From: Nanoarchaeota archaeon SCGC AAA011-G17
GTDB taxonomy: Archaea > Nanobdellota > Nanobdellia > SCGC-AAA011-G17
Direction: 5' to 3'
DNA: 64,000 nt
NCBI GenBank assembly: GCA_000402515.1
Contig: AQRL01000036.1
Coordinates: forward strand, 4,871 to 68,870
Below, one piece after another: positions 7,117-33,712 of the stretch; position 1 is the first letter of the stretch, and each line of letters opens with the position of its first letter. The translations under genes were made by a program, and so were the position numbers. The notes under the pieces are model-generated. The model was not told the origin of the DNA and did not search any database. It was given only the letters and a program-made list of their open reading frames with translations.

Positions 7117-9297
7117 TTATTTCTTTCTTTGCACTATTTTTATTACCTGGCCGTCTTTAAGATAAGCTATTCTTTCTGCATATTTTGTCAGGTCTGGGTC
7201 ATGGGTAATCATTATAATTGTTTTCTTCTCTTCTCTATTGAGTTTCCTTAGAGTTTCCATTACATTTATTCCTGATTGTGAATCAAGATTTCCTGTTGGT
7301 TCGTCTGCTAGTATTACTTCCGGGTCATTTGCAAGTGCGCGTGCAATTGCCACTCTCTGACTCTCCCCTCCTGAATTATGAAGATAAATTCCATGTGTGC
7401 CAATAAATCTATTATTTTCATCTGAGACATCATAAACATATTGTGTCTTATTTATCTTTTTTATTTCTTTTATTTTTACAAAACCAACATCACCCTGAAT
7501 TATTTTTTTGTAATCTTCATGTTTCACCTTAAAAAGGATATAATTTAATAGGCCCTTTTTTATTGAATAATTTCTTTGTATATCCTGCCTCAAGATTGAC
7601 CCAATCCCAGAACATTCTGTTGTAGTAAATAACTTTCTATTTGAATCTATAAATTCAATTAAGTCTTCTTCAAATGGAATGTAATTAGGCAGAATATCTG
7701 TTTTTCCCAAACCATTAACACCAATATTGTTAAAAGTAACATTATATCCCCTTTTGTTTAGTTCCTTAGCAAATATCTCACATTGTTTACCATAAAGACA
7801 TAGTTTGTAGGATTTTCTTCTATCCCTTTGATTTGGAAAATGTGTTTCTATTGCTGGAATATAGCCCAATTGTAGGAATAAGAAATGAAGTTTCTTTGCT
7901 AATATCTCTGAAGTTGTTTTTATAGAAATCTCTCTTCTTTTTTCTTTACCTTTTATTGTTCCTTTCTTCCTATGTGTTCCATCTCCATAAGCTCCTGCTA
8001 AAAATTCTAATTTTAGCTCATTTGAAACGTTGAATAGAATATTTGGGATATTTCTTGAATAACAATTTTCTCCAACCTTAAATATTTTTAGGAAAATTAA
8101 GGAAAGTAGTTTATTGCTTGTCTCTAATTTTATTGTATTGTGCTCTTTTTCTATCTTTTTTCTTATTTTTACTTTAAATATATCTTCGAATATCTTTTTT
8201 ATACTGTTTGCTCTTTCTTTTTCATTAATTCCTAGGGTGAAAGTTATATAGTATCTGCTATTTTTTTGATCGTGCCTTACACAACCTTCTGAAGCAAAAT
8301 CTCCCAAAATCCTACATAAATTTTTATCTATTTTTATTTTAGTTGGGATGGCTTCTTTTAAATGACTTACTTTAAATCTTATTTTATCATTTTTGGTTAT
8401 AATATATTTATATTGTGGTATTTTTTTTAACTCTTTTTTTAAGTCAATAATTTTGTTATCTAAATAGGGATTATTTGGGAGATTCATAGAAATTGGAATT
8501 GTTTCCTCTTTTTTTAAATCTGAAACTTTTTTGGGAAATATCTTTCCATTTTTATAAACAAATATGCTGTGAGATCCTGTACATTCAATACTATAACCAT
8601 ATTCTGTTTTTATTTTGTAGATTGAATTGGATTTATGCCTTATGACTTGTTTTAGGCTGGTGAATATTTGTTTATATTGGTCATTGAATGTTGCTATTTT
8701 TATTGGCTCTCTTACTGTTATTCTTACCCCTTCATTTACATTTGATATTTTTTCAATGTTTTTTGAATTTTTTATTAAACTATCAACAAATTCTCCAATT
8801 TTTATTGGGATTATTATATTATTTTTTTTTACTATAATATATTCATCTTTTCCTACACTTAATTGCGAGGGCAAATGACCAAGTCTTTCTCCCAACCCTA
8901 CTTTTTTTAACAGTTCTGTTGCTCTTTTTTTTCTGTGCTGCTCGGTTGTATCCTGGAAGAGCATTGGAAGCATTACATTTTCTATAGCAGTTAAGCTGGG
9001 GATTAAATTATACTGCTGAAAGACAAAACCAATTTTTCTGCCTCTTATCTGAGCCAGAGTAGATTCTGATAAATGCGCTATGTTATGTTTATCTAGATAG
9101 ATATTTCCTTTTGTTGGAACATCTAAACAACCAATTGAGTTAAGCATTGTTGACTTTCCTGATCCAGAGGGACCAAAGACCATTAAGAATTCTCCCTGTT
9201 TTACTTCAAGATTAACACCTTTTAAAGCAGGAACTTCTACTTCACCTATCTGATATATTTTTTCTACATTATCCAATTTTATTATTATATTAGTCAT
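7117..9297 (-). CDS. ABC transporter ATP-binding protein (MacB/LolD-like) containing an intein
   Basis: Walker A GPSGSGKST, Q-loop, then PSQL|S...HN|SGGESQRVAIARALANDPEVILADEPTGNLD; exteins sum to ~231 aa, the normal size of an ABC ATPase. Confidence 0.85.
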   Translation of the reverse strand: MTNIIIKLDNVEKIYQIGEVEVPALKGVNLEVKQGEFLMVFGPSGSGKSTMLNSIGCLDVPTKGNIYLDKHNIAHLSESTLAQIRGRKIGFVFQQYNLIPSLTAIENVMLPMLFQDTTEQHRKKRATELLKKVGLGERLGHLPSQLSVGKDEYIIVKKNNIIIPIKIGEFVDSLIKNSKNIEKISNVNEGVRITVREPIKIATFNDQYKQIFTSLKQVIRHKSNSIYKIKTEYGYSIECTGSHSIFVYKNGKIFPKKVSDLKKEETIPISMNLPNNPYLDNKIIDLKKELKKIPQYKYIITKNDKIRFKVSHLKEAIPTKIKIDKNLCRILGDFASEGCVRHDQKNSRYYITFTLGINEKERANSIKKIFEDIFKVKIRKKIEKEHNTIKLETSNKLLSLIFLKIFKVGENCYSRNIPNILFNVSNELKLEFLAGAYGDGTHRKKGTIKGKEKRREISIKTTSEILAKKLHFLFLQLGYIPAIETHFPNQRDRRKSYKLCLYGKQCEIFAKELNKRGYNVTFNNIGVNGLGKTDILPNYIPFEEDLIEFIDSNRKLFTTTECSGIGSILRQDIQRNYSIKKGLLNYILFKVKHEDYKKIIQGDVGFVKIKEIKKINKTQYVYDVSDENNRFIGTHGIYLHNSGGESQRVAIARALANDPEVILADEPTGNLDSQSGINVMETLRKLNREEKKTIIMITHDPDLTKYAERIAYLKDGQVIKIVQRKK
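7375..8859 (-). mobile_element. Intein (495 aa) with LAGLIDADG homing-endonuclease domain, inserted between L and SGG of the ABC signature motif
   Basis: Begins with Ser (SVGKDEYIIV...), ends ...GIYLHN followed by S; two LAGLIDADG motifs (LCRILGDFASEG, LEFLAGAYGDGT); extein junction reconstitutes LSGGE. Confidence 0.8.
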
Positions 9298-12154: not shown

Positions 12155-12865
12155 GTGAAAAAGGTATTATACACGAATAAGGGAGATAAGCTGTACTGGG
12201 AGAAGGGAGATTTGCACACCCAATATGGAATGGTCAAGGAGAAAGACATCAAGCAGGGGAAGATAAAGACCCATATTGGAACCAATCTGAAAGTCTTAGA
12301 TGCTGATTTTCTGGATAAATTAGAGAAGGTAAAGAGGGGTCCTGCATTTATGGTTCCTAAAGATATCGGCTTGATTCTTACTAATACAAGCATCAATAAA
12401 AATTCCAATGTATTAGATGCTGGAACAGGCTCTGGAATTCTGAGCGCTTATTTGTCAAGATTTGTAAAAAGGGTTTACAGCTATGAGAGGAATCCTGAAT
12501 TTTTAAAATTAGCAGAAGAGAATTTTAAAAAGCTTGGAATCAAGAATGTTGAGTTAAAAAATGGAGATGTATATGAAGATATCAAAGAGAATGATCTTGA
12601 CTTAATAACATTGGATTTATTAGAGCCATGGAATGCCTTGAAAAATGCACGCAGAGCCTTAAGAAGCGGGGGGTATATTGCTGTTTATACACCTAATGTC
12701 AGCCAGGTCAGCAGATTTGTTAAGGAGTTGGACAAGAATTCATTTATTTTTATAAAGACTATTGAGGTTATTGAGAGGGAGTGGGTAGTGGATGATTTAA
12801 GAATAAGGCCAAAAAACAGAATGCTGGGACATACTGGCTTCTTAACTTTTGTAAGAAAAATTTGA
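12155..12865 (+). CDS. trmI: tRNA (adenine57/58-N1)-methyltransferase TrmI
   Basis: Gcd14/TrmI pattern (GPAFMVPKD, VLDAGTGSGILSAYL, ALRSGG). Confidence 0.7.
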   Translation: MKKVLYTNKGDKLYWEKGDLHTQYGMVKEKDIKQGKIKTHIGTNLKVLDADFLDKLEKVKRGPAFMVPKDIGLILTNTSINKNSNVLDAGTGSGILSAYLSRFVKRVYSYERNPEFLKLAEENFKKLGIKNVELKNGDVYEDIKENDLDLITLDLLEPWNALKNARRALRSGGYIAVYTPNVSQVSRFVKELDKNSFIFIKTIEVIEREWVVDDLRIRPKNRMLGHTGFLTFVRKI

Positions 12866-12868
12866 TTA
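12836..12868. repeat. 33-bp direct repeat (copy 1) covering the 3' end of trmI; copy 2 at 14098-14130
   Basis: ggcttcttaacttttgtaagaaaaatttgatta vs ggcttcttaacttttgtcagaaagatttaatta (3 mismatches). Confidence 0.8.
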
Positions 12869-14015
12869 ACCAAACAAATTCATAAACCAAGAAAGAATCT
12901 TTTCTAAGAAACCCTTACCAATACATTTATTACTTACACAAACATTACTATCACATTCAAAATTATTATTACATTGCATACTTTCTGTTAATTGTGTTTT
13001 TAGTATTTTATCAATATCACAAAATTCATTCTCTGTCCTAACACCAACAGGGACACAATTGTTACTAGAATCTAAACAACCATTACAATTATTCTCTCCT
13101 TCATTAGAAACTATAGCGCTCTTTTCGCTATTAGTTGTTTCCTCATTAGTAGAAATTGTAGACGTTACATCTGGTGATTTAGAACCAACCATTATCATCA
13201 ACCCCCTTTGTACAAAAACCTGTTTCACCACAAATATTCACATCAGTATAATCACACCATTCTTCATAATAAGTGTCAAAGCTACCATCCAAGATGCAAT
13301 GCTCATCATATCGTGATTCACATGCATAATTTCCATAATTTCCTCCCCTGAATATATCTAAGTAAATCAATTGTTCTCCACTAGTAGATTCATTTGTTGC
13401 ACAATCTTTCACAATTCTATGTAATACATAATAATTATCTTCTTCTATACAAGAACCATCCTTACATCCATTTGAGCAGTATTGTTTAGCATACCATTTC
13501 CCCGTTATATCATCGCATGCCAAAACATAATCCCCTTCACTATCACAGGAATAGCTTCCAGACAAACATTCTTTTGTTTCTTGTGGAAATAATTCTATCA
13601 ACTTATTGACACCAACATTTTCACTTAATATCTCTTTATGTTTTACATTTAATTTATCCAAAATTTTTATAAGTTCTGCTTGAAAAACAAAATGGCTTGT
13701 TGGAGAATGTGAACCAACAATAATGACTGCTTCTCCATTATAAACCAAAAGTGTAACTCTATTATCAAGAGTATTTATATCAATCTCACTAAATAATTTA
13801 GCATAGGTTGATGGAATCTCTCCATATTTTAAAGAACCATCATCATTTTTCATAAGTTGTAAAGAAGCTATTATTTCAGATATAATTTTGGTGTCTGAAG
13901 CAGGACCTAAATCATAAACGCCGATAACAGAAAATGTAGCTATGGTGCTTGTTTCCTCAGCAAAAACAAATGAGCTAAGTAAAATTAACAATATTCCTAA
14001 TACTAATTTTTTCAT
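12866..14015 (-). CDS. Cysteine-rich secreted protein; reading frame broken at a G5/C5 homopolymer (13202-13206), appearing as ORFs 13179-14015 and 12866-13231
   Basis: Signal peptide MKKLVLGILLILLSSFVFA; both ORFs Cys-rich and overlapping by 53 nt in different frames across a C5 run. Confidence 0.5.
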
Positions 14016-14097: not shown

Positions 14098-14130
14098 GGC
14101 TTCTTAACTTTTGTCAGAAAGATTTAATTA
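14098..14130. repeat. 33-bp direct repeat (copy 2)
   Basis: See 12836-12868; recreates the ...GFLTFVRKI* C-terminus as a 61-aa pseudo-ORF. Confidence 0.8.
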
Positions 14131-14161: not shown

Positions 14162-14581
14162 ATGAAAATTGTTTTAATTGCGTGTGCAAGCAAAAAATTG
14201 TCCAAAAAAACTGAGGCAAGGGATTTATACATAAGCCCATTATTCAAATATAATATTAGATATGCCAAATCATTAAATCCTGATAGTATATTTATTCTTT
14301 CTGCAAAATATGGCTTATTAGAATTGAATGAAGAAGTAGGACCTTATAACCAAACATTAAATAGAATGAATAATGAAGAGATTGTAAAATGGGCGGATGG
14401 AGTTATTAATAAACTAAGTAAGAAAACAGACCTTAAGAATGATGAATTTATTTTTTTAGCAGGAGAAAAATATAGAAAATTTTTGATACCCCATATCTCT
14501 AATTATAAAATTCCTTTAGAAGGGCTCGGGATTGGAAAGCAATTAAAATTCCTGAAAGAGAGGATAAAAGATGAGCAATAA
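14162..14581 (+). CDS. Conserved hypothetical protein (139 aa), first gene of a two-gene module
   Basis: MKIVLIACASKK...ARDLYISPLF...ILSAKYGLL; overlaps next gene by 11 nt. Confidence 0.4.
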   Translation: MKIVLIACASKKLSKKTEARDLYISPLFKYNIRYAKSLNPDSIFILSAKYGLLELNEEVGPYNQTLNRMNNEEIVKWADGVINKLSKKTDLKNDEFIFLAGEKYRKFLIPHISNYKIPLEGLGIGKQLKFLKERIKDEQ

Positions 14582-15209
14582 CTGCAATAAATTACATAAG
14601 TTAGTTAATAATTCAAAGAGATTAAAATTTCCTTTTAAGGAAGAAGATATTCCGCTGAATGGAATCTATATATTATTTGAGAAAGATGAATTTGCTCATA
14701 ATGGTGATAGGATTGTTAGAATTGGAAGCCATACTGGAATAGGTCAATTGAGATCTAGATTAAAACAGCATTTTATTAATGAAAACAAAGACAGGAGCAT
14801 TTTCAGAAAAAATATCGGGAGGGCTCTGCTTAACAAGAGTAAAGATAAGTTTCTTGAACAGTGGGAATTAGATTTAACTTCTAAAAAATCCAAAGAGAAA
14901 AATCTGCATTTAATAGATCTTAGTAAACAAAAAGAAATTGAAAAAAAATTTACAGAGTATATCCAGAATAATTTCAGTTTTATTGTTCTAAAGATAGATG
15001 ACAAGAAAAGAAGGCTTGAGAGTGAGTCTAAACTAATTTCAACTGTTTCATTATGCAGGGAATGCAGGCCATCAAAAAACTGGCTTGGCTTATTCTCTCC
15101 AAAAGAGAAGATAGTAAAGAGCGGGCTTTGGCTGGTTAATGAGCTATACAAAGAGCCATTATCTGATAAAGAAACAGATGAGCTAAAGAATTACTTATTC
15201 AAGTCCTGA
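14571..15209 (+). CDS. GIY-YIG nuclease-family protein with C-terminal extension
   Basis: NGIYILFEKDEFAHNGDRIVRIGSHTGIGQLRSRLKQHF matches GIY...YIG...R..H. Confidence 0.5.
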   Translation: MSNNCNKLHKLVNNSKRLKFPFKEEDIPLNGIYILFEKDEFAHNGDRIVRIGSHTGIGQLRSRLKQHFINENKDRSIFRKNIGRALLNKSKDKFLEQWELDLTSKKSKEKNLHLIDLSKQKEIEKKFTEYIQNNFSFIVLKIDDKKRRLESESKLISTVSLCRECRPSKNWLGLFSPKEKIVKSGLWLVNELYKEPLSDKETDELKNYLFKS

Positions 15210-16609: not shown

Positions 16610-17764
16610 ATGAAAATCGAGAAATATTTTGACCATGATGTAATGAGCGTACATCTTAAGGAGAAATTAAAGCCCTGTGTAAAGAGGGGTATGCCTGGAA
16701 ACTGGCAGTTTGAAGAATTAAAATTTAATATTCTTAAAAGCAATGATCTTGTTGAAATATATGAGGATTTCATTGAAGAGGTTAATGCAAATAATAAGGG
16801 CTTTATCGAGATGGAGAGAGAGGGAAGCACTATTTTCCAGATTGGAAAGTACAGAATTGTTGTTACAAGACCACCATTTTCAAACTGCTGGGAGATTACT
16901 GCTGTAAGGCCTGTAAAAAAGCTTGAACTAAAAGAGTATAAGATGAGTGAGAAGCTAAAAAAAAGGATTGCAGAGCAGGCAGAGGGGATTTTAATTGCCG
17001 GTAGCCCTGGCATGGGAAAATCTACATTTGCATCTGCCCTTGCTGAATATTATTCTGAGCATGGCAAGATAGTAAAAACTGTTGAGGCTCCAAGGGATTT
17101 ACAATTAAATGACAAAATAGTGCAGTATTCTTTGAAAGATAATTCTGAGGAGATACATGATGTTTTATTATTATCAAGACCAGATTATACAATTTTTGAT
17201 GAGATAAGAAATTACAAGGATTTTGAATTATTCAGTGATTTGAGATTATCCGGGATTGGACTGGCCGGAGTTGTACATGCTACTACTCCAATAGATGCTA
17301 TACAGAGATTTATCGGAAAGACTGAATTAGGAATAATCCCGCATATTATTGATACTGTTATTTTCATTAAAAATGGGGGTGTAGAAAAGGTGCTGGCTTT
17401 GGAGATGACGGTTAAAGTTCCCAGCGGGATGACTGAGGATGATTTGGCAAGGCCAATTGTTGTTGTCAAGGATTTTGAAACAGAAAAACTGGAATATGAG
17501 ATTTATTCTTACGGCGAAGAGACTGTTGTTGTTCCTGTAAAGGGCTTGGAAAAAGAGAAGAAGATTGCTGCGCATGAGCTGGCTGCAAAACAGATTGAGA
17601 AATATCTAGCTGAGTACAAAGTAAAGGCAAGACTTATTTCAGATAATAAGGCAGAGATTTATGTTCCTTCTAAATTTATAGCAGAGATTATTGGAAAGGG
17701 CGGAAAAAATATAGACAAGCTAGAAAAAGAAATTGGAATCAAGCTAGAGGTGAAGGAGTATTGA
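16610..17764 (+). CDS. PilT-family ATPase with C-terminal KH domain (COG1855-like)
   Basis: Walker A AGSPGMGKST; C-terminal KH signature IIGKGGKNIDKLEKEIG. Confidence 0.6.
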   Translation: MKIEKYFDHDVMSVHLKEKLKPCVKRGMPGNWQFEELKFNILKSNDLVEIYEDFIEEVNANNKGFIEMEREGSTIFQIGKYRIVVTRPPFSNCWEITAVRPVKKLELKEYKMSEKLKKRIAEQAEGILIAGSPGMGKSTFASALAEYYSEHGKIVKTVEAPRDLQLNDKIVQYSLKDNSEEIHDVLLLSRPDYTIFDEIRNYKDFELFSDLRLSGIGLAGVVHATTPIDAIQRFIGKTELGIIPHIIDTVIFIKNGGVEKVLALEMTVKVPSGMTEDDLARPIVVVKDFETEKLEYEIYSYGEETVVVPVKGLEKEKKIAAHELAAKQIEKYLAEYKVKARLISDNKAEIYVPSKFIAEIIGKGGKNIDKLEKEIGIKLEVKEY

Positions 17765-17974
17765 ATGAAGATAAACATACTTTCCGGCAGTTTGAGCCAA
17801 ATAAATTCTACCCTTGATGCATATGGTTATGAGCATTATATTGATAATAGTGGTTTTCTTAACGTTGATGAAATCGGTGTAGAGTGCCTTGAAAAAACTC
17901 TAGGGATTAAATATGAAATTATTGAAGGAAAGAATGTAACTGCTAGAGATATTTACCTTTTGCCTAAAAAATAA
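17765..17974 (+). CDS. Small hypothetical protein
   Basis: 69-aa ORF. Confidence 0.3.
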   Translation: MKINILSGSLSQINSTLDAYGYEHYIDNSGFLNVDEIGVECLEKTLGIKYEIIEGKNVTARDIYLLPKK

Positions 17975-18394
17975 CTATTTCTTAAAAAATATATAGAGCG
18001 CATAGGCAACTGCCCCTGCTTTAACTCCCATTACACCCCACTTGTAAGCTGATGTTTTTGTTTCCCAATCTGCATATTTTTCTGGTATTATCATTCTCTC
18101 AATAGGCTCGCTTAATGCAGCTGCTGCTGCGCAGTGTGTTGCAATGGTTTTTATGTCTATATCTATTCCTGCCTGGTTTATTTTATCAACTAATTTTTCT
18201 CCTGTTTTTGCTGCAAGTATTCCGGATGAAATGCCCAAGACAAAGGCTAACTGGGAATCATATTTTTTTGTGTCTCTTATTCCTGGAATAAAACCCTTTA
18301 CAGAATGAAAGGCCTCATTGCACAAAAATAGCAATGGGGTTTTTTCAAAAAATATAACTGGTTTTTCTACTTGTTTATATATTTTATATCTCAT
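17975..18394 (-). CDS. Unknown 139-aa protein translationally coupled to an AbrB-family antitoxin (candidate toxin)
   Basis: ATGA overlap with upstream AbrB gene; no PIN/RelE/MazF motif; hydrophobic C-terminus. Confidence 0.4.
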   Translation of the reverse strand: MRYKIYKQVEKPVIFFEKTPLLFLCNEAFHSVKGFIPGIRDTKKYDSQLAFVLGISSGILAAKTGEKLVDKINQAGIDIDIKTIATHCAAAAALSEPIERMIIPEKYADWETKTSAYKWGVMGVKAGAVAYALYIFFKK

Positions 18395-18678
18395 TATTTA
18401 TTCCCTCTTGATTTATGAACCAAATGGGGGATATCATTTTCCTTTAAACCTATTTTTTCTGCTCTCTTCTTTCCTTCTTTTGCTATCATTTCTAAATCTT
18501 TTATTAACTCTTCTTTAGAAGGAGTCTCTATTTTTTTTAGAATAATAGTATCCTTGGTACCAAAAATTGCAAATGTAGTGCCTTCTTGCATGTTTAATTT
18601 ATTCCTTATGTCTTGAGGAACAACAATCTGTCCTCTAGAGCTCATTTTAGTTATTTCAATTGCCATATTAACCTCCAT
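18394..18678 (-). CDS. AbrB/MazE/SpoVT-family antitoxin-like DNA-binding protein
   Basis: ITKMSSRGQIVVPQDIRNKLNMQEGTTFAIF swapped-hairpin motif. Confidence 0.65.
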   Translation of the reverse strand: MEVNMAIEITKMSSRGQIVVPQDIRNKLNMQEGTTFAIFGTKDTIILKKIETPSKEELIKDLEMIAKEGKKRAEKIGLKENDIPHLVHKSRGNK

Positions 18679-18766
18679 TCTTATTATAAGAAAGTAAGAT
18701 TAACTTATTTATAAACTTTTCTGTTTGGATAGTTTTTTAAAAGCAGATTTCTTTTATTTTTATGTG

Positions 18767-18841
18767 GGCTTGTAGCTCAGCTTGGATAGAGCACCACACT
18801 CCTAATGTGGGGGTCGAGGGTTCGAATCCCTCCAGAGGCTT
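18767..18841 (+). tRNA. tRNA-Arg(CCU)-like partial duplicate with non-pairing acceptor stem (pseudo-tRNA or att remnant)
   Basis: 60 nt (18773-18832) identical to tRNA at 20708-20782, but 5' GGGCTTG cannot pair with 3' CAGAGGC. Confidence 0.5.
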
Positions 18842-18985
18842 TAGATTATAGAAGATTTTATTGTAAAGCCATTTAATGCCTCTAAAATTGAAGAGACTAT
18901 GAAAAAGATTTTGAAGTAGATAACTTAATTATTAGTTTTATTAAGAGAACGAAAGATTTAAATATAAGTTCTATTTAAAATACTT

Positions 18986-20248
18986 ATGTCAAATATAATT
19001 GATACTATAAAATTACTCAATCCTTGGTGGGAAGATGAAAGAGTTAGCGAGGAGCTTGCCAAACAGTATAAAAGAAGCTTTTTTGATAAAATACAAGAAT
19101 TTAAGAAATATAAGCAAATAATTATTCTTACAGGATTAAGGAGAGTTGGAAAAACCACCCTTATCTATCAAACAGTAAAAGAGCTGCTTAATGGAACTGA
19201 CTCAAAAAGAATTTTTTATTTTAGTTTTGACAAGGAGGTTGATGATTTAGTAGAACTTTTTGAAAATTACAAAGAGCTAACGGGAATAAACTACAAAAAA
19301 GAAAAAATTTTTGTTTTTTTTGATGAAATAACCCGATTTAAAAAATGGGCTATTGAACTGAAATTAATTTATGACTCCTGTCCTAATATAAAATTTTGTA
19401 TTTCATCGTCAAGCAGCATTAATTTGGAAGAAGATGCTATAAAAAATCTTGCGGGGAGATATTTCCTAATTAATATAAGCCCTTTGAGCTTTAAAGAATT
19501 TTTAGAATTAAGGGGTAAGGAAAAAATGATTAAAAATTATAGGCTCTACTCAAGGGAAATAAAAAAAGAGTTTTTTTCTTATTTATTGAGGAGCTTTCCA
19601 GAAACAGTAAATTGGGATAATGAACTAGTTATCAAGGATTATCTTAGAACAACAATTATAGATAAGATAATTAAATCAGATCTTCCAGAAAGATTCAACA
19701 ATATTAATAAAGAATTACTGTATAATCTCCTAGAATTATTTTATAAGGAGCCAGGATTTTATCTTGATTATGATAATTTATCAAAAAATTTAAGGATAAG
19801 TAAGAACACACTATACACTCACATTTTCTATCTTGAATTCTGCTATCTAATAAGAATTGTGAAAAATTTCAGGCCCAGCACACTCTCAACAAGCAGAAAG
19901 CTACAAAGAGTTTATCCTTATTGGTGGAATTTGGTATATTGCTATGGAGAAAATAATGACAAAATTTTAGAGTCTTTTGTCTTAAGCATAATAGACGGAA
20001 AGTATTATTGGAGGAATTTAGAAAAAGAAATTGATTTCTTAAAAATTGAAGGCAGGAATATTCTGCCTATTGAAGTTAAAAACAGAGAAAGAGTTGAAGA
20101 GCGAGATTTGAATACATTAAAATTATTTATGAGCAAGTATAAATTAAAAAAATCTCTTCTTTTATATCTTGGAGATGAAAAAATCAGAGATTATGATAGT
20201 GGAAAGATTGAATTTATTCCATTCTGGAAATGGCTCTTAACAGAATAA
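18986..20248 (+). CDS. AAA+ ATPase with DUF4143 C-terminal domain (COG1373 family)
   Basis: Walker A LTGLRRVGKTT, Walker B FFDEI, DUF4143-like C-terminal region. Confidence 0.65.
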   Translation: MSNIIDTIKLLNPWWEDERVSEELAKQYKRSFFDKIQEFKKYKQIIILTGLRRVGKTTLIYQTVKELLNGTDSKRIFYFSFDKEVDDLVELFENYKELTGINYKKEKIFVFFDEITRFKKWAIELKLIYDSCPNIKFCISSSSSINLEEDAIKNLAGRYFLINISPLSFKEFLELRGKEKMIKNYRLYSREIKKEFFSYLLRSFPETVNWDNELVIKDYLRTTIIDKIIKSDLPERFNNINKELLYNLLELFYKEPGFYLDYDNLSKNLRISKNTLYTHIFYLEFCYLIRIVKNFRPSTLSTSRKLQRVYPYWWNLVYCYGENNDKILESFVLSIIDGKYYWRNLEKEIDFLKIEGRNILPIEVKNRERVEERDLNTLKLFMSKYKLKKSLLLYLGDEKIRDYDSGKIEFIPFWKWLLTE

Positions 20249-20249
20249 C

Positions 20250-20624
20250 ATGGGAACAACAACTTTTTATTTAAGGCACAATGATATTGGGAGAAAATTA
20301 AGTGAGATGACTAAAGAAGAATTAGATAAACTTGATAATCTTTCTCCATATAAAAAAGATAACTCTGCTTTTGGATGGTTTGTTCCATTTGAACTCCATA
20401 ATGGAAATGTATATCTTCTAATTTTCTGGAAAGGAAGACTTATTAGATTAGACGAGGCACCAAATAAGCTTAATAGAAAATATTATAGCAGATTAGCAGG
20501 AAAAACTACTAAGGAACATGAGTGGACTGTTCTAAAGAAATTTCTATTAAATGAGATAGAGAAATTGGATAAAGAGTTTAAAAAATCCGTAAGAAGTAAA
20601 CAAATTCATAAATCAAAAGAATAA
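20250..20624 (+). CDS. Hypothetical protein
   Basis: 124-aa ORF immediately downstream of the ATPase. Confidence 0.3.
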   Translation: MGTTTFYLRHNDIGRKLSEMTKEELDKLDNLSPYKKDNSAFGWFVPFELHNGNVYLLIFWKGRLIRLDEAPNKLNRKYYSRLAGKTTKEHEWTVLKKFLLNEIEKLDKEFKKSVRSKQIHKSKE

Positions 20625-20707
20625 AAATAAATATCACTAAGAGAAAGATATTTATAAAAAAGAAAAAGAAGAAATACTTAAAAAACTATAAGCTAGCTCT
20701 TAATTAT

Positions 20708-20782
20708 GCCCGGGTAGCTCAGCTTGGATAGAGCACCACACTCCTAATGTGGGGGTCGAGGGTTCGAATCCCTTCTCGGGCG
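20708..20782 (+). tRNA. tRNA-Arg (anticodon CCU)
   Basis: Acceptor GCCCGGG/CTCGGGC (one G-U), D-arm GCTC-AGCTTGGATA-GAGC, anticodon arm CCACA-CTCCTAA-TGTGG, T-arm GAGGG-TTCGAAT-CCCTT; 75 nt. Confidence 0.85.
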
Positions 20783-20785
20783 CTT

Positions 20786-21631
20786 TTATTTAATGTATTT
20801 TTTATGAACTTTCAAATACCTTCTTGTAAAATAATTAAAGAAATTATCTTCATCCTTCTGCAAAGCCCGATAATAAGATTTTCTCTTTTTATACTCAATT
20901 ATAATCATAGGATAGTTAGCATGCCATAAAATATAATTTATTATTAATCTTCCAACTCTCCCATTTCCATCTCCGAAGGGATGTATCCTCTCAAATTTAT
21001 AATGCATTCTTGCTGCAAACTCAACAGGATTCATTATTTTATTTTTGTTATAGAAACTGATTAAGCTTTTCATTAAGCTATTTACCTTTTGCCAATCTGG
21101 TGCGATATAATCTCCAACTCTGACATGATAATCACGAAACTTTCCAGCAATATCTTGCTTTGTATCCTTAAACAAAGATTTATGCCATTTTAAAATAAGT
21201 TCATTATTAAAATTTTCTTTCTTTCTAAGCATATCCAAAAAAACAGATACATGTGCTTCAGTTTCTTTTACATCTCTCAATGGCTTATTCGGGGCAATTT
21301 TGTATTCAACTAATTCTTTTGTTTCCTCTAATGTTATTTTTGAACCTTCAATAGCATTTGTGTTATATGTGAAAGAGATTGCAATCTGCTCTTTTATTTT
21401 TTCTTTTATCGTTTCCGGATATTTTACCCATTCTTTCTGAAACCCATTTTTTATCTTTTTGAATAATTTAAAAAGATTATTTTTGCTACATTCTTCTAAG
21501 AAAGACTTTTTTATATCTTCAATATTTTCTGGTATTTCTTTGCCCAAATATTTTTCTTTAGTTACTACTTTACTGTCCTTTCTAAAAGAATGCTGTAGAT
21601 AGTAATAGTTCTTTCTTTTTATTATCCTCAT
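20786..21631 (-). CDS. Fic/DOC family protein (putative AMPylator)
   Basis: Canonical Fic motif HPFGDGNGRVGR. Confidence 0.8.
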   Translation of the reverse strand: MRIIKRKNYYYLQHSFRKDSKVVTKEKYLGKEIPENIEDIKKSFLEECSKNNLFKLFKKIKNGFQKEWVKYPETIKEKIKEQIAISFTYNTNAIEGSKITLEETKELVEYKIAPNKPLRDVKETEAHVSVFLDMLRKKENFNNELILKWHKSLFKDTKQDIAGKFRDYHVRVGDYIAPDWQKVNSLMKSLISFYNKNKIMNPVEFAARMHYKFERIHPFGDGNGRVGRLIINYILWHANYPMIIIEYKKRKSYYRALQKDEDNFFNYFTRRYLKVHKKYIK

Positions 21632-21720
21632 ACCAATACTATATCATTACAAATATTTAAATTTATTGTTTTTGTGAAATATGTAATGGTAATTATTGTG
21701 GTGTATATTTTTTATAACCC

Positions 21721-23145
21721 TTATTTTCTATATCTGTAAAAAAGAATTATTATAAACAAATTAACTATTAATACAAAGGCAGAAGTAAATGGCAGAAGGG
21801 ATATTCCTACGCATGGAACCTCTGTCTGGATTTCACTGTCAACAATACCATTTGTCATTACTATTTGTTTTAGTATCTGCTTGCCGTCAACACACGGGCC
21901 ATTTTCATAAGAAATGATTGTTCCATTTCCAAAATCAGAACTGCACTGATCCCAGCAGCCTATAAACGGCTGGTTTGCTGTTTCCTGAGGGCAATCCAGT
22001 GTAAAACCATAGTAATTTCCAACACCATTTATCCTGTCTAAGCCTGTATCTTCCAATATTTTATCACAACATTGGGCAGTTGATTTTTCCCCAGCTATTT
22101 CACAGACAAGAACATTATCACATAAATCACCTATACCGTCACTATCTGCATCTGCCTGATCTGGATTTGGAATAAAGGGGCAGTTGTCGATATCATCCAT
22201 TATACCATCACCATCTAAATCACCAAGGCATCTTCTTGTCCCCAAAATTTCGTTTACAGAACATAATACTCCTGCTTTACAACTATCTTGCTGGCCCACA
22301 CAATCATTACAACCACAGCCCTCCCCCTCTTCACATATCTCATTTTGAGTTATACAACCTTTTACTCCTCCACCACCACAATCTGGATCTTTTGGAGTAC
22401 ATCCACAAATACAACTGTCTCCTGCATTACATGTTGCTCCTCCACATCCAATTTGATTTTTAGATGAACAGTAAGAAGCAGAACAATCGGGATCTGGTAC
22501 TGGACAACCTCGGGCACAGCCATTTCCTGAACTGCATGTAATTCCAGAACAATCTGGGTCTGATAATGGAGCACAATCTATTAAACAGCCATCTCCTGGA
22601 TTGCATGTTGCTCCTCCGCAGCCTTGCTGATTTAGATAAGAGCAATAAGAAGCACCACAATCTGGATCTACAGGATTACCTCCAAGAGCACATCCATCTC
22701 CTGCACTACAGGTAATATCTTCACAAAAAAATCTACATGTCCCATCAGTACAAAGAACCTGCCCATCTTCACAAAGACCCCTACACAAAACACCAGATGG
22801 GTCTAATTTATTATTTTCATTTATGCTGGCTTTACATTCTCCAGGGCTACATTGATTATTATCCAACTGCCAAGAGCATTCTGTTTGTGATGTACAGATA
22901 CATTTTGCACAGGGGTTTACTGTTACTAATGTATTTGGTATTGCTGGGGGATAAAAAACATCTATTGTTGTATTACACCCTGCATAGCCTATTTCTTCAC
23001 TTGAAAGACAGTTTGGATTATCCAATGGACAGGCACAGACATTCAAAGAAGGATAACAGCCTGCTCCACAACAGATTGCATCTGAGGAAGGAACCAGAAT
23101 TATTAATCCTGAAATAAATATGAAAAAAAATAATAGTTTTTTCAT
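21721..23145 (-). CDS. Cysteine-rich secreted protein with repeated Cys modules, a thrombospondin type-3 Ca-binding repeat and C-terminal TM anchor
   Basis: Signal peptide; repeats ...CGASYCS..QGCGGATCN.GD.C...DPDC...; DLDGDGIMDDIDNCPFIPNPDQADADSDGIGDLCDN; C-terminal FVLIVNLFIIILF. Confidence 0.6.
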   Translation of the reverse strand: MKKLLFFFIFISGLIILVPSSDAICCGAGCYPSLNVCACPLDNPNCLSSEEIGYAGCNTTIDVFYPPAIPNTLVTVNPCAKCICTSQTECSWQLDNNQCSPGECKASINENNKLDPSGVLCRGLCEDGQVLCTDGTCRFFCEDITCSAGDGCALGGNPVDPDCGASYCSYLNQQGCGGATCNPGDGCLIDCAPLSDPDCSGITCSSGNGCARGCPVPDPDCSASYCSSKNQIGCGGATCNAGDSCICGCTPKDPDCGGGGVKGCITQNEICEEGEGCGCNDCVGQQDSCKAGVLCSVNEILGTRRCLGDLDGDGIMDDIDNCPFIPNPDQADADSDGIGDLCDNVLVCEIAGEKSTAQCCDKILEDTGLDRINGVGNYYGFTLDCPQETANQPFIGCWDQCSSDFGNGTIISYENGPCVDGKQILKQIVMTNGIVDSEIQTEVPCVGISLLPFTSAFVLIVNLFIIILFYRYRK

Positions 23146-23654
23146 TTTCTTATTTTATGAATTATATAATAAGTTGCAATTGCCACTGCTATTAAAATTG
23201 CTGCTATAACATAATATGGATTTCTTTGCTTTTCTATCTGGGCCTGCTGTGTCTCTTTTTGGAATCCCTGCTTAAATAATTCCAATTGTTTTTTATTTGC
23301 TTTATTTAATTCCTCTCTCTGCTTCAAAACATCTGTTTCTGTTGAGCCAAACTGCAGTTCCTGCTCAAAATTTAATCCGTTAGATGAAGTTATAGTAATT
23401 GTATGCTTGCCTGGCTCTATTGTCGGAAAGATTGAGATTGCTTTTTTTGAGGCTAACCTTTGCACCAGAATGTTTTCTTCCCCTTGATCTATACTATATT
23501 TTAAATCATTGTAATTAATCGCTGTTGGGTTAAGTATTCTCAGCCTTGCTGAGCCTGTTTCTGGTGTGTAGGAAACTATCGAGATTTCTAAATCCTGGGC
23601 AAATGTAATTGGAATTAGGAACAGTGCTATAATTAATAAGATTATTTTTTTCAT
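23142..23654 (-). CDS. Small secreted protein with C-terminal TM anchor
   Basis: Start moved to MKKIILLIIALFLIPITFA (SD-like GGAGG upstream); C-terminal YYVIAAILIAVAIATYYII. Confidence 0.5.
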   Translation of the reverse strand: MKKIILLIIALFLIPITFAQDLEISIVSYTPETGSARLRILNPTAINYNDLKYSIDQGEENILVQRLASKKAISIFPTIEPGKHTITITSSNGLNFEQELQFGSTETDVLKQREELNKANKKQLELFKQGFQKETQQAQIEKQRNPYYVIAAILIAVAIATYYIIHKIRK

Positions 23655-26425: not shown

Positions 26426-27601
26426 TTACTTATTAGTTAAATGCTTTGACAAATTTATAATATTAGTAAAGATTATTTCGCAATTTTCCTCTTTTATTAT
26501 CTTTTCTTCGCCTTTGTAAAATACAACTAATGCCTTTCTTGGTTTATATTCTTTAATAAATGATAATAACCCCCTCCCTATTTTTTTCGGGTTTGTCAGT
26601 TTTACTTCAATAGGCAAAACTCCCTCTTTTTCTATAACAAAATCAACTTCTGATCCTGATTTTGATCTCCAGTATTTTGGAATAAGGCTGGTTTTTATAA
26701 GTTCATCAAACACATAATTCTCAAACAATGCTCCATCAATTTCAGAATCAAACTTCTTTGAAGTATAATTTCTTATACCAGAATCAATAAAATATATTTT
26801 TGGCTGTTTCGTTATCTCTTTAAGCTTATTCCTAAAAAAAGGGATTGCTGCAAAAACTAAGTTGCTCTTTTCTAAGGCGCATAAATATTTTTTTATTGAC
26901 TGAAACGAGAGGTTAATGTTTTTTGAGATTTCATTATAAGAAATCAAGCCTCCGACAGACAATGAGAGATACCTTGTGAATTCTTCTAGAGATTTTATAT
27001 TTTCTATTGAAAAGTTCTGCGCAACATCTTTTAGCAGCATTATTTCATATAAATCTTTTAGAATTGTTTTTTTAATTTCTAACTCGCTGTTAGCCACCAC
27101 CATCGGATAGCCTCCATAGACTGCATGCTCCCAGACAATTCTTTCTGCTATCTGTTTATTAAGCTCTTTATGGTGCATTGCTTTGGTAAACTCATTTAAT
27201 GAAAGGGGGTACAATCTTAAGATTGACACTCTTCCCACAAGATAGGACAAAACCTGCTTTCCTAAAATTAATTCAGATGAAGAAGTAATCCAAAGCTTAT
27301 GGCCTTTATCTGCCAAATATTTTAAATTTCTTCCAGCTTCCTTGCAGTAATGAACTTCATCTAAAATTGTAACCTCATTGCTTTCTACATACTGCCTTTC
27401 AAATTTCTTGACATCTTCCTCAAATAAGTTTCTTACATCAGGATCATCAAAAAGAACATATTTTGATTTTAGAGTTTTTGCCTGTTCTTTTAAGAAAGTT
27501 GTTTTGCCTGCCTGCCTTGGCCCGACTAAGGCGATTATTGGATAAATTTCTTTAATCTTGTCAAATTGCTCTTTTATCTCTCGTTCAATGTATTCTGCCA
27601 T
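26426..27601 (-). CDS. AAA+ ATPase with DUF4143 domain (second member of COG1373-like family)
   Basis: Walker A LVGPRQAGKTTFLK; paralogous architecture to 18986-20248. Confidence 0.65.
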   Translation of the reverse strand: MAEYIEREIKEQFDKIKEIYPIIALVGPRQAGKTTFLKEQAKTLKSKYVLFDDPDVRNLFEEDVKKFERQYVESNEVTILDEVHYCKEAGRNLKYLADKGHKLWITSSSELILGKQVLSYLVGRVSILRLYPLSLNEFTKAMHHKELNKQIAERIVWEHAVYGGYPMVVANSELEIKKTILKDLYEIMLLKDVAQNFSIENIKSLEEFTRYLSLSVGGLISYNEISKNINLSFQSIKKYLCALEKSNLVFAAIPFFRNKLKEITKQPKIYFIDSGIRNYTSKKFDSEIDGALFENYVFDELIKTSLIPKYWRSKSGSEVDFVIEKEGVLPIEVKLTNPKKIGRGLLSFIKEYKPRKALVVFYKGEEKIIKEENCEIIFTNIINLSKHLTNK

Positions 27602-30764: not shown

Positions 30765-32075
30765 TTAGTATCCCTTTGGCACTAAATGATAAATTGTTCC
30801 TATGTTATCTTTATCCAACTGTGTGAAGTCTTTTGCTATCTGAGAATCATGATATAGTGTTGCAGCTGAATAAGCTGGATTAAAAGTGTCTGACAAATTC
30901 ATATGTGATTGAGAAGCCTCTTCCCTGTATATCCCCTTGCTGTTATCAGTATCACTAAACATATCTAAGTACCATATTCTTGCCCCTGTAACTGTATTTG
31001 TATTCCAATCTACATAAACCTCATATCTTGCCAATGCACCCGAAGGAATATTTGGATTCCCTATTGGAACAAAATAATGCTTGACATTTGCCTGCAGAGA
31101 ATCATTTACTATTTCTGGCTTTATTTCTGACTGGAAATTAACATAATCTTCAGTTATTACTTTTATTAACGCAGGTTTAGCTTGAGATGTGTTTGCATAT
31201 GGATTTAAAGCATTATTCTCCTGTATCCAATCCTTTGGTGTTGTTTCCCATTTTGCTACTGGAACATTCCCCTCATTATACCCTTTTTTCAAGACCTGAT
31301 AAAAAAATTCAATATCAATGTCTTTATTCAAAATAACTCCATATTTATTTAGATTTGAATTAACTTTTGTATCAAAGTAATACCATACAACATAAGGGTT
31401 CCTATCTTCAAAAAATGGATATTTCCAATAGCCATCTGCATCAACACACATCTCATAATCTCCAGGCAATAAATAAACTGAATAATTTCCCTGGGCATCT
31501 GCTGTATCTGCCTTTACCAGATTCCAATTCTTGTCTTTAAAGGAAACAACTGCATTTGGGACTGTAGAGTATTCCGGATTTCCTGCATGTATTCCAAGAA
31601 CTTTTCCAGAAACCTTGTATTTCCCGTAATTTCCTCCAAGAACCTGCAGTAATGTAATCAAGTCAAAGATGTCTGTTTTGCTGTTATTATTGACATCCCC
31701 GGATAGTGCAGGATAGCTCTCTGGATGACCAAGGATTTTAAGCAATTCCAATAAGTCAAAGATATTTGTTTTTCCATCATTATTAACATCAGAATTGGGT
31801 GTTTCTGAGGCTAACTGCGCTAGAGAAAGTGCCTTCTGCTTTCCACTATCATAGGGGGCTATTGCCTCTGCTTCTGAAAGCATTTCCTCCAGTGAGTAAT
31901 TTCCCGACTGCACTAATGGCTCGTATTTCTGTGAAAACTGCTCAACTGTCTGTACAGGCTCTTCATATTTAGGGGAGGTAATGTCTCGTGAGCAGGCTAC
32001 TGGGAGGGATATAGAACCAGCTAATAAATAAGGCGCTATCTTCCTTCTTAGTTTAGTTATTAAGCCCTCTTTCAT
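30765..32075 (-). CDS. Secreted protein containing a dockerin type-I repeat pair
   Basis: DVNNDGKTNIFDLLELLKILG and DVNNNSKTDIFDLITLLQVLGG match the dockerin Ca-binding repeat. Confidence 0.6.
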   Translation of the reverse strand: MKEGLITKLRRKIAPYLLAGSISLPVACSRDITSPKYEEPVQTVEQFSQKYEPLVQSGNYSLEEMLSEAEAIAPYDSGKQKALSLAQLASETPNSDVNNDGKTNIFDLLELLKILGHPESYPALSGDVNNNSKTDIFDLITLLQVLGGNYGKYKVSGKVLGIHAGNPEYSTVPNAVVSFKDKNWNLVKADTADAQGNYSVYLLPGDYEMCVDADGYWKYPFFEDRNPYVVWYYFDTKVNSNLNKYGVILNKDIDIEFFYQVLKKGYNEGNVPVAKWETTPKDWIQENNALNPYANTSQAKPALIKVITEDYVNFQSEIKPEIVNDSLQANVKHYFVPIGNPNIPSGALARYEVYVDWNTNTVTGARIWYLDMFSDTDNSKGIYREEASQSHMNLSDTFNPAYSAATLYHDSQIAKDFTQLDKDNIGTIYHLVPKGY

Positions 32076-32125
32076 AGCTTTTTACAGTGTTTTTAGAGTA
32101 TTTAAATATTATGGTTTGTTACTAC
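32052..32125. repeat. ~73-bp direct repeat (copy 1) covering the start codon/promoter of gene 30765-32075; copy 2 at 33713-33785
   Basis: tttagttattaagccctctttcatagctttttacagtgttttt...atttaaatattatggtt...gttactac shared, ~90% identity. Confidence 0.8.
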
Positions 32126-32209
32126 TTAAATAGAATAAATTAAGGAAGAAGAAAGATTTATATAGTATAATCAATTAACTAATAGTATCAAATTTGATAA
32201 TATAGGTTT

Positions 32210-32923
32210 ATGAAAAGTATAATATTGTTAAAGGAACTTGAAAAATATAAAGTATTTAATAATAAGGTAGTTAGAGACATAATAAAAAAAGATCATAACT
32301 ATACTAGGCTGCTTATATATCGGCTTAAAAAGAGCAACTTAATTATAGAAATAGAGAAAAACAAATACACAGTACACGAAGATCCATTAATTATAGCAGA
32401 TAGTATGGTGTGGCCATCTTACCTTTCCTGCTGGACTGCTTTGAGATTTCATAACTTAACAGAACAGCTTCCAAATACAATCTTTGTTATAACAACAAGG
32501 TCTAGAAAAAACAATAAAATAGTATTTAATAATAATAAAATCATTTTTATAAAAGTAAAACAAAAATATTTTTTTGGGTATAATAAAGAAAATTACAGGG
32601 GTTATGATACATTTATAGCTGACCCAGAAAAAGCCATAATAGATTCAGCATTATTTAAGAAGATATCTTTATCTGAGTTATACACCATTATTAAAAATAA
32701 TTTAAATTCAATAAATGCTGCTTTGTTTATTGATTATTTATTAAGAATAAAAAATAAAACCCTGATAAAAAGATTTGGAATTTTATTTGATAAGCTTAGA
32801 TTAGACTTTTATGACAAATTAAAATCCTTTATTAATAATAAATATATTATATTGGATTATGCATTGCCCAAGAATAAAAACAAAAACATGAAATGGAAGG
32901 TAATTGAAAATGTTAGATATTAA
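32210..32923 (+). CDS. abiEi: AbiEi-family antitoxin/transcriptional regulator
   Basis: Upstream partner of AbiEii with 20-nt overlap; C-terminal domain similar to AbiEi. Confidence 0.6.
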   Translation: MKSIILLKELEKYKVFNNKVVRDIIKKDHNYTRLLIYRLKKSNLIIEIEKNKYTVHEDPLIIADSMVWPSYLSCWTALRFHNLTEQLPNTIFVITTRSRKNNKIVFNNNKIIFIKVKQKYFFGYNKENYRGYDTFIADPEKAIIDSALFKKISLSELYTIIKNNLNSINAALFIDYLLRIKNKTLIKRFGILFDKLRLDFYDKLKSFINNKYIILDYALPKNKNKNMKWKVIENVRY

Positions 32924-33680
32924 TGAACTAAAGAGAATTTCTGAGCTAAAAAGAATTTCATTGATAAATACAGAAAAAGATTATATCCAGGATATTATTT
33001 TATTCAGCCTTTATTCTAATATCGGAAGAGAATTTATATTTAAGGGAGGAACTTGCCTTTATAAGGTGTATAAGTTAAATAGATTTAGTGAAGATTTAGA
33101 TTTTACACTAATAAAAAATGCAGATACCAAAAATATTTTTAATAAATTAATTTATGATTTAAAACTTCTTAATATTAATGGAAATATTAAAGAGATTAAA
33201 GAATATAAAAATGAAATTAATGTGAGATTAATCTTCAATGGCCCCCTCTACAGGGGAAGAAAGGAAGAGCAGTGTTTTATTCCTATAAATATAAGCCTAA
33301 AAGAAAAAGTTCTTATAGAACCAAAAAATGAAATGATAATTTCTATGTACAAAGAAATTCCAAATTTTGAAATTTTCATTATGGATGAACAAGAAATACT
33401 GGCAGAAAAATTCAGAGCTATATTAAGCAGGGAAAAACCAAGAGATATTTATGATGCATGGTTCTTATTAATAAAGAAAAATATAAGCCCCGATATAAAG
33501 ATAATCAATAAAAAGTTATCTCTATATAATCTTAAATTTAACTTGAATAAATTTATAGATAGCGTTGAAAAAAAGAGAGGCTTATGGAATTTAGATCTTA
33601 AAAATTTAATTATAGGAGAGCTTCCTGATTTTGATGAAATTAAGAAAGAAATTATTTCTAAATTAAAAGAAAATCATTAA
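32904..33680 (+). CDS. abiEii: AbiEii/AbiGii nucleotidyltransferase toxin (DUF1814)
   Basis: FKGGTCLYKVYKLNRFSEDLDFT matches the KGGTAL...RFSEDLDF nucleotidyltransferase signature. Confidence 0.8.
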   Translation: MKMLDINELKRISELKRISLINTEKDYIQDIILFSLYSNIGREFIFKGGTCLYKVYKLNRFSEDLDFTLIKNADTKNIFNKLIYDLKLLNINGNIKEIKEYKNEINVRLIFNGPLYRGRKEEQCFIPINISLKEKVLIEPKNEMIISMYKEIPNFEIFIMDEQEILAEKFRAILSREKPRDIYDAWFLLIKKNISPDIKIINKKLSLYNLKFNLNKFIDSVEKKRGLWNLDLKNLIIGELPDFDEIKKEIISKLKENH

Positions 33681-33712
33681 AATTAGCTTGCATTTTTTAG
33701 TTTCTTTCCTAA

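Follow-up and report, generated by a model that had tools for sequence, protein, structure and literature searches.

The 64,000-nt stretch analyzed here (the window), from contig AQRL01000036.1 of Nanoarchaeota archaeon SCGC AAA011-G17, carries two copies of a tRNA-Arg(CCU) gene, separated by ~1.9 kb of DNA that encodes a candidate defense-type ATPase and a small protein. Comparison with L013, a metagenome contig of a close relative, revealed that (i) the segment separating the tRNA copies is a real insertion; (ii) the upstream copy is the resident gene, which has kept its native promoter flank, 5′ acceptor strand and body, and has lost its native 3′ strand at about position 68; (iii) the promoter flank and the acceptor stem of the downstream tRNA are foreign, the stem being self-consistent; and (iv) the insert combines, as a mosaic, a gene fragment, two genes that travel separately and a complete tRNA gene. 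The locus is best described as a recombinationally acquired defense-type islet with tRNA gene replacement. We favor, with a probability of about 0.5, the import of a linear foreign chromosomal fragment by recombination with one illegitimate joint, rather than by an integrase.

Both tRNA copies are called by ARAGORN, and both exceed the gathering threshold of the Rfam tRNA model (RF00005), the downstream copy scoring 64.0 bits and the upstream copy, in which non-standard acceptor pairs are flagged, 50.2 bits. They are linked by an exact direct repeat (60/60; 18772-18831 and 20714-20773, spacing 1942 nt) that runs from tRNA position 7/8 to position 64, covering the D arm, the anticodon arm, the variable loop and the T arm and leaving both acceptor strands outside. 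A 21-mer derived from the repeat occurs at these two window sites only, when compared with 0 occurrences expected from shuffles, and no third T-arm copy is present within the window. The downstream acceptor stem (GCCCGGG/CTCGGGC, discriminator G) is paired at all seven positions, with one G-U, and the upstream one (GGGCTTG/CAGAGGC) forms 4/7 in-register pairs, at positions 1 and 5–7. The predicted free energy (dG) of the cloverleaf is -28.2 kcal/mol for the downstream copy and -15.1 kcal/mol for the upstream copy, whose minimum free energy (MFE) fold leaves the acceptor stem open. The 7-bp acceptor stem of a functional tRNA is present in the downstream copy and lacking in the upstream copy. 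A preliminary description of this DNA had correctly reported a duplication of 60 nt of tRNA body 1.9 kb apart and a broken upstream acceptor stem; the tandem duplication with two functional tRNAs that it considered as the alternative falls, because the upstream copy fails to close its acceptor stem when folded.

A TATA-like TTTTTTAAAAG box lies in the native flank ~25-33 nt 5′ of the upstream tRNA start, and a TATA-like TTAAAAAA box lies in the foreign flank ~21-30 nt 5′ of the intact tRNA. Both would act as promoters, in the case of the native flank judging from archaeal promoter geometry. The junction sequences of the insert are AATCCCTCCAGAGGCTTTAGATTATAG and TTAATTATGCCCGGGTAGCTC. Searches for the native 3′ strand CAAGCCC or for a GCCTCTG-type 5′ strand returned chance-level matches only, none of them adjoining a tRNA body.

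When 40 nt from the tRNA body were searched against metagenomes, the sole match was contig L013 (3,950 nt, sample ERZ1292623). This contig carries, in order, the end of a KH-domain ATPase gene, open reading frames (ORFs) of 69 and 139 amino acids (aa), one tRNA-Arg(CCT) gene, a Fic gene, a gene for a Cys-rich secreted protein and a further ORF. It thus provides the empty site that had been proposed as a test by comparative genomics, with a single tRNA-Arg(CCU) between the same neighbors. Blastn aligned L013 with the window in three collinear blocks, 17397-18401 (87.7% identity), 18724-18835 (95.5%) and 20714-23610 (81%), so that two window segments are extra when compared to L013: 18402-18723, and the ~1.9 kb that separates the tRNA copies.

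At the species level, the neighboring KH-domain ATPase has its nearest relatives under the labels Woesearchaeota or Nanoarchaeia (DPANN archaea). A tRNA-Arg(CCU) gene was also found downstream of the KH-ATPase gene in three more distant relatives (L006, L008 and L011), and an intron-bearing tRNA-Arg(CCU) gene lies ~150 nt from the Fic orthologue in L026. This recurrence beside KH-ATPase or Fic genes marks a tRNA-Arg(CCU) gene at this locus as ancestral, and a related donor could therefore have the right flank in common with the recipient. No other empty or occupied site was reached through Fic orthologues, those of L025, L027 and L034 being without an adjacent tRNA. The L026 tRNA gene (~1497-1585, minus strand), which ARAGORN misses, contains a non-canonical intron of ~18 nt within the anticodon stem, in its 5′ strand. 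In the alignment, the L008 tRNA gene (14828-14905) has ~15 extra nt following the D arm. Acceptor stems differ across all relatives examined.

The L013 tRNA has the identical 60-nt body and a fully paired acceptor stem (GGGCCTG/CAGGCCC, discriminator G). The 48 nt 5′ of the upstream copy match the L013 flank, with an identical run of 37 nt that contains the TTTTTTAAAAG box, and the 5′ strand of this copy (GGGCTTG) is one base off that of L013. Because its 5′ flank and 5′ acceptor strand are orthologous to L013, the upstream copy is the resident one. Its homology to L013 stops at 18835, four bases beyond the repeat. At the downstream copy, the upstream flank has no similarity to L013, and 3′ of the body homology to L013 is unbroken except at bases 67, 68, 70 and 71 and in the region just after the tRNA. 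There, the first ~12 nt after GCTTTT contain a 3-nt indel and two mismatches relative to L013, by which the Fic stop codon has been moved outside the tRNA. Four pairs of the downstream acceptor stem (2-71, 3-70, 5-68 and 6-67) are changed on both sides when compared to L013, and the other 14 stem pairs are unchanged (P = 0.006 for four double changes placed randomly among 21 stem pairs). The preliminary description had taken the upstream copy for a degenerate duplicate, and for a pseudo-tRNA or a remnant of an attachment (att) site. The pseudo-tRNA is borne out by the broken acceptor stem; the duplicate and the att remnant are not, since the L013-like flank and 5′ strand mark the resident gene. 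The roles given to the two copies have to be reversed, with the native flank and 5′ strand at the upstream copy and the foreign ones at the downstream copy.

The left end of the insert looks like the truncated tail of a gene that was carried in with it (Table 1). The putative remnant has no start codon, its 5′ side being cut by the pseudo-tRNA junction. In a phmmer search against PDB, nearly all of the 60 best matches shown were chains of CheY or other response regulators. Most alignments end at, or a few residues from, the C-terminus of the chain, and the three seen at residue level reach the last residue. The best match, to residues 99-120 of the 120 of Thermotoga CheY, has an E value of 0.026; for a query of 24 residues this evidence is weak, though consistent, and the peptide carries DFIVKPF. 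No Pfam match was obtained for the 24 residues, and neither the window nor any of the fetched loci yielded a full-length relative. A truncated CheY-like tail in this position would mark an illegitimate joint made within chromosomal DNA.

The ATPase gene of the insert encodes a protein with AAA_14 (Pfam, 6.7e-32) and DUF4143 (2e-09; a PD-(D/E)xK-type domain), and the PADLOC profile of PDC-S01 (PDLC04787) matches it over its full length (2.6e-51, residues 26-419). Contig AQYW01000072.1 of assembly GCA_000380905.1 encodes this ATPase. It is thus, like members of PDC-S01, a P-loop ATPase fused to a PD-(D/E)xK-type domain; PDC-S01 proteins of this build are abundant in archaea and constitute an unvalidated candidate defense system (PMC12988326). 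The cargo is a candidate defense or toxin-type module. The DNA of the gene is 85-91% identical in four contigs (L014-L017) that have unrelated neighbors and no tRNA. The homologous block extends from ~18926/18932 to 20235/20239, from ~55-60 nt 5′ of the ATG to ~10 nt before the stop codon. Among species representatives, the best housekeeping match found is 57% identical at the amino acid level, and the contrast with 85-91% DNA identity points to a recent horizontal spread of the ATPase gene. No terminal repeats, target duplications or transposon-like ends were found at the ATPase gene; homology comprises the promoter and the ORF only.

The partner gene encodes a protein of 124 aa with no match in Pfam, PADLOC or NCBIfam, to which no fold could be assigned (predicted local distance difference test score, pLDDT, of 67 for the model; no PDB match). 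Its family is small and tight, with 50 relatives found among 1.8 billion cluster representatives, all of them short stand-alone proteins bar one weak multi-segment match in a 428-aa protein. A small gene of this family directly follows an AAA_14/DUF4143 gene in three other contexts (L018, L019/20 and L021-24), and the DNA of the small-gene block (20186-20653) is 87.5% identical to L018. In L035-L040, the small gene comes after an unrelated 120-aa ORF and before two Fic genes. Farther along, these contigs have an AbiEii gene, in place of which L037 has an AAA_14/DUF4143 gene; one source names the contigs, which carry P0109, Planctomycetaceae bacterium. The small gene thus also travels in Fic/AbiE/PDC-S01 neighborhoods of other lineages, bacteria apparently among them.

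The last ~50 nt of the ATPase ORF (20186-20239, ...IPFWKWLL...) are common to ATPase-only and small-gene-only loci (L014-L018), and this 3′ end thus behaves as a recombination junction that joins different ATPase variants to the small gene. In the archaeal contig L019, a direct repeat of 109 nt (94% identical; 4494-4602 and 5958-6066) surrounds the AAA_14/DUF4143 gene. The repeat consists of the ATPase 3′ end and the small-gene 5′ end; its upstream copy is a fragment and its downstream copy is intact, as at the tRNA locus.

Table 1. Features of the islet and its borders, in window coordinates.
Feature	Position	Strand	Description
Upstream tRNA-Arg(CCT) call	18766-18842	+	ARAGORN
Downstream tRNA-Arg(CCT) call	20708-20783	+	ARAGORN
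Separate insertion relative to L013	18402..18723	-	AbrB/MazE-type gene, ORF 18394-18678
Native 5′ flank of the resident tRNA	18724..18765	+	L013 alignment
Pseudo-tRNA-Arg(CCU)	18766..18842	+	GGGCTTG, 60-nt body 18772-18831, then CCAGAGGCT replacing the native 3′ strand
Putative CheY-like gene-tail remnant	18845..18919	+	24 codons (IIEDFIVKPFNASKIEETMKKILK) and stop; six-frame translation
PDC-S01-type ATPase gene with its own promoter stretch	18926..20248	+	ORF 18986-20248, 420 aa
124-aa partner gene	20250..20624	+	2 nt from ATPase stop to start
Foreign 5′ flank of the intact tRNA	20625..20707	+	No likeness to the native flank (L013 alignment)
Intact tRNA-Arg(CCU)	20708..20783	+	GCCCGGG/CTCGGGC, discriminator G, body 20714-20773
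Right flank, Fic gene	20784..21631	-	ORF 20786-21631, orthologous to the empty site

The insert does not amount to a recognizable element. No recombinase domain was found with Pfam in the insert or in 46 window ORFs, among them most ORFs of ≥200 aa, and the leftovers of the insert (95 nt and 83 nt) contain no ORF remnant apart from the CheY-like tail. The preliminary description was therefore accurate on gene content, an AAA_14/DUF4143 ATPase plus a 124-aa ORF without family match, and on the lack of an integrase. Its reading as classic tRNA-targeted integration is not supported: a recombinase is missing, both acceptor strands lie outside the repeat, the CheY-like tail is present, and the cargo is tRNA-free elsewhere. 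A classical att repeat would continue as far as one end of the tRNA gene, 3′ (or 5′). Two hallmarks of an integrative element are present, namely direct repeats with one copy inside a functional tRNA gene and an unoccupied site in a relative (L013). Two others are absent: no recombinase gene lies in, or is split across, the segment, and the repeat stops at positions 7/8 and 64, short of either tRNA end. Because of the latter two, the islet is not classed as an integrase-type integrative element, and it resembles a tRNA-adjacent genomic islet. No tRNA adjoins the cargo homologues in the 11 contexts that were fetched, nor was an association with tRNAs found in L014-L024, L035 and L037. The tRNA body, the GCCCGGG arm and a relaxed GCCCGGG arm are absent from IMG/VR; the CCAGAGGC arm had matches only in six viral contigs that are unrelated, most of the matches lying in tRNA genes of phages.

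The import of a linear fragment would have proceeded as follows. In the ancestor, as still in L013, the 139-aa gene and the Fic gene would have been separated by one tRNA-Arg(CCU) gene. The incoming fragment of ~1.9 kb, with a CheY-like tail, a PDC-S01 ATPase gene, the 124-aa gene and a complete, promoter-bearing tRNA-Arg(CCU) gene, may have come from a related archaeon whose tRNA-Arg(CCU) stem is GCCCGGG/CTCGGGC. The right joint would have formed in sequence common to both, the tRNA end (G-CTTTT) and/or the Fic region, and the left joint would be illegitimate, in the resident 3′ acceptor strand at about position 68. The resident gene would thereby have been left as a promoter-bearing stump unable to form an acceptor stem, and the imported gene would have taken over the supply of tRNA-Arg(CCU). 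The 60-nt repeat would then be the conserved body of two orthologous tRNA genes, possibly gene-converted, and no attachment site. The data show the insertion, which copy is which, that the cargo is a mosaic and that a recombinase is absent; how the fragment recombined and what kind of donor it had are inferred.

The junctions read, from left to right, native 5′ strand, body and foreign DNA, and then foreign promoter, foreign 5′ strand, body, matching 3′ strand and native right flank. A single crossover in the body, be it made by an integrase or by host recombination, is excluded as the full source of this pattern, because the native 3′ strand would then stay with the native right flank. Linear import explains the truncated tail, the complete foreign tRNA gene, the absent recombinase and the cargo that is tRNA-free elsewhere.

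Several points weigh against this interpretation. L013 is the only empty-site relative found, and no donor-type locus (CheY-ATPase-small gene-GCCCGGG-type tRNA-Fic) was found. Synonymous divergence (dS) between the window and L013 is 0.26-0.62 to the left and 0.70-0.77 to the right; with dS similar on both sides, no imported tract is detectable to the right of the tRNA, and the comparison does not discriminate between linear-import and circle routes. Within the continuous homology only the four mismatching 3′-strand bases differ from L013, and compensatory change in place after a 5′-distal integration also fits. The sequence after the body of the upstream copy, CCCTC-CAGAGGC, is a plausible tRNA 3′ end. 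Six viral contigs contain the identical 22-mer, at least four of them within a called tRNA gene, and it could be an att arm instead of random DNA. Finally, the 60/60 identity of a dead and a live copy needs either a recent event or gene conversion.

An unlikely alternative, which nonetheless survives best, is a circular mini-element of ~1.94 kb whose attachment region would mimic the promoter, 5′ strand and body of tRNA-Arg(CCU), and which would have entered by a single 5′-distal crossover in the 60-nt body, by means of a trans-acting integrase or of host homologous recombination (Campbell-type). The initial product, GGGCTTG-body-element arm ... GCCCGGG-body-native 3′ strand, would then have undergone four compensatory 3′-strand substitutions under selection, at 67, 68, 70 and 71. 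In its favor, base 65 of the downstream copy and the post-tRNA sequence are host-like, only the bases that mismatch GCCCGGG differ from L013, one of the restored pairs is merely a G-U, and the arm after the upstream copy resembles a tRNA 3′ end. A direct repeat with the intact gene downstream has the same polarity as the Caldiarchaeum tRNA-Thr case (PMC3293823), 5′-distal integration is rare but known (PMC6563490), and other small cassettes lie between direct repeats of local sequence in the window and in a relative. However, neither the insert nor the scanned window ORFs encode an integrase, and both tRNA copies would at first have been defective (3/7 acceptor pairs, cloverleaf dG of -11.9 kcal/mol). 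Four specific transversions would have been needed while the dead copy remained 60/60 identical. The mini-element would also carry a broken CheY-like gene tail and two genes that are separately mobile and without tRNA linkage elsewhere, and neither the tRNA body nor the GCCCGGG arm, strict or relaxed, was found in IMG/VR.

More doubtful still is the stump of a larger, integrase-encoding element or tandem array, the integrase end of which would have been deleted from the tRNA 3′ strand inward. Decay and tandem arrays at one tRNA gene are well known (PMC6563490), and one deletion would cover both the broken 3′ strand of the upstream copy and the adjoining truncated gene tail. No remnant of an integrase, replication or structural gene is left in the 95 nt and 83 nt, however, and a matched foreign acceptor stem joined to the native right flank would be unexplained.

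Local tandem tRNA duplication with decay, or an ancestral two-copy state with loss in L013, is very improbable: it would account for a perfect 60-nt direct repeat 1.9 kb apart, but the acceptor strands change abruptly at both ends of the perfect body, flank similarity of the two copies is at chance level, and the cargo has close homologues elsewhere. A tandem block duplication was rejected on the same flanks, which are no more alike than shuffles. Nor is L013 a deletion derivative, because a repeat-to-repeat loop-out yields GGGCTTG/CTCGGGC, with only 3/7 acceptor pairs, and the stem of L013 itself is perfect.

The resident promoter probably still drives a transcript that is unable to mature into a tRNA, and tRNA-Arg(CCU) function would rest on the imported copy. 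Should the repeats recombine and the islet be lost, this function would be lost with it, and the islet should therefore be stabilized. Going further, the acceptor-stem mismatch might be a lock that holds the tRNA hostage or, in a related reading, PDC-S01 ATPase-nuclease genes might spread by a homing-like route; we regard either idea as improbable. If the lock were true, removal of the islet would leave the 3/7-pair chimera GGGCTTG/CTCGGGC and tRNA-Arg(CCU) would be lost, an addiction-like stabilization free of toxin. If the homing-like route were true, the genes would spread between DPANN genomes with conserved tRNA bodies as homology anchor.

The locus offers a clean occupied-versus-empty example of very small defense-type modules that would enter DPANN genomes without a recombinase of their own, and it suggests that an imported orthologue whose acceptor stem differs can take over the function of a resident tRNA gene. 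Annotation also needs caution here: the dead copy passes as a tRNA with ARAGORN as well as with Rfam, and equating a pseudo-tRNA with the att remnant of an element can invert the roles of the copies.

The Fic-domain gene lies directly after the intact tRNA, as had been described, with its stop codon 3 nt from the tRNA end. The protein matches PF02661 (2e-23), carries the motif HPFGDGNGRVGR in translation (HPFGDGNGR, which conforms to HxFx(D/E)GNGRxxR) and is 85% identical at the amino acid level to the Fic protein of L013. PADLOC assigns it to PDC-S04 (3.9e-38) and SoFic (3.3e-32); with 37 bits against a cut-off of 550 for the NCBIfam SoFic equivalog, it is a family member and not an equivalog. 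On the other side, blastn of L013 against the window leaves 18402-18723 unmatched, and the gene in this segment encodes an AbrB/MazE-type protein (Pfam MazE_antitoxin, 1.9e-06; NCBIfam AbrB domain, 4.3e-12). The segment represents another insertion at this tRNA locus, independent of the first. The stop codon of the AbrB/MazE-type gene overlaps the start of the 139-aa gene, as in an operon-like pair.

A second AAA_14/DUF4143 ATPase gene (26426-27601, minus strand; PADLOC PDC-S01, 2.6e-71) lies 5 kb from the islet, and a pair of them lies within 6 kb in L015; genes of this type occur in multiple copies and move horizontally. A direct repeat of ~140 nt (32041-32185 and 33702-33845, the central 76 nt being 92% identical) brackets a two-gene module of 1.66 kb with ~24% GC (cassette 32210-33680), which encodes a 237-aa ORF without Pfam match and an AbiEii toxin (PF08843, 1.7e-27). 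Its anatomy is like that of the tRNA islet, with toxin–antitoxin or defense genes between local repeats and no recombinase. A 33-nt direct repeat (91% identical; 12836-12868 and 14098-14130) flanks two minus-strand ORFs without Pfam matches (12866-13231 and 13179-14015), and this segment may be another small repeat-bounded insertion. The window further contains an ABC ATPase gene with an intein (7117-9297; Pfam Intein_splicing/LAGLIDADG_3), a free-standing helix-turn-helix (HTH) plus LAGLIDADG ORF (34422-35264) and a DUF6884 gene paired with a GIY-YIG-like gene (14162-15209), which indicates many selfish or nuclease-type genes. The islet is thus set among similar small modules (MazE/AbrB, Fic, the second PDC-S01 ATPase and AbiE).

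Homology-facilitated illegitimate recombination in naturally transformable bacteria uses a short shared anchor at one end and an illegitimate joint at the other, truncates genes on both sides and replaces a few host bases by foreign kilobases. We know of no demonstration of this process in DPANN archaea, and the anchor and the donor are inferred here.

Archaeal tRNA islets and cryptic elements (pNOB8-/SSV-type; She et al., Krupovic et al., PMC6563490) share with the present locus the tRNA site, direct repeats of tRNA sequence, an empty site in a relative and accessory or defense cargo. They differ from it in that no integrase is present here, and in that the repeat is 3′-distal, reaching the gene end, in those elements and consists of the tRNA body without acceptor strands here (PMC6563490). 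The tRNA is reconstituted from host and element sequence in those elements, whereas here the acceptor stem is foreign and self-consistent. The smallest cryptic element in the archaeal survey is 2.6 kb (PMC6563490), and the insert described here, with 1.9 kb, is below it.

In Caldiarchaeum subterraneum, a 5′ fragment of tRNA-Thr lies ~1.8 kb upstream of an intact variant with the same anticodon (Sugahara et al. 2012, PMC3293823). There, too, the insertion is seen against an uninterrupted allele and differences have been carried into the functional copy (PMC3293823). The Caldiarchaeum insert, which is present six times in its genome, has a recombinase gene adjoining the tRNA, and no recombinase is found here; the upstream copy is nearly full length here (1 to ~68) and the acceptor stem has been swapped, whereas the change in Caldiarchaeum is an added intron (PMC3293823).

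The ATPase has the same AAA_14 plus DUF4143 architecture as PDC-S01, with a full-length profile match (2.6e-51). PDC-S01 is listed as a single-gene candidate (PADLOC; PMC12988326), whereas here and in three other contexts a conserved gene for 120-136 aa lies within 2 nt of the ATPase gene, which points to a conserved small gene as partner of some PDC-S01 ATPases. Overall, the locus is of an ordinary kind among genomic islets, and its polarity is unusual.

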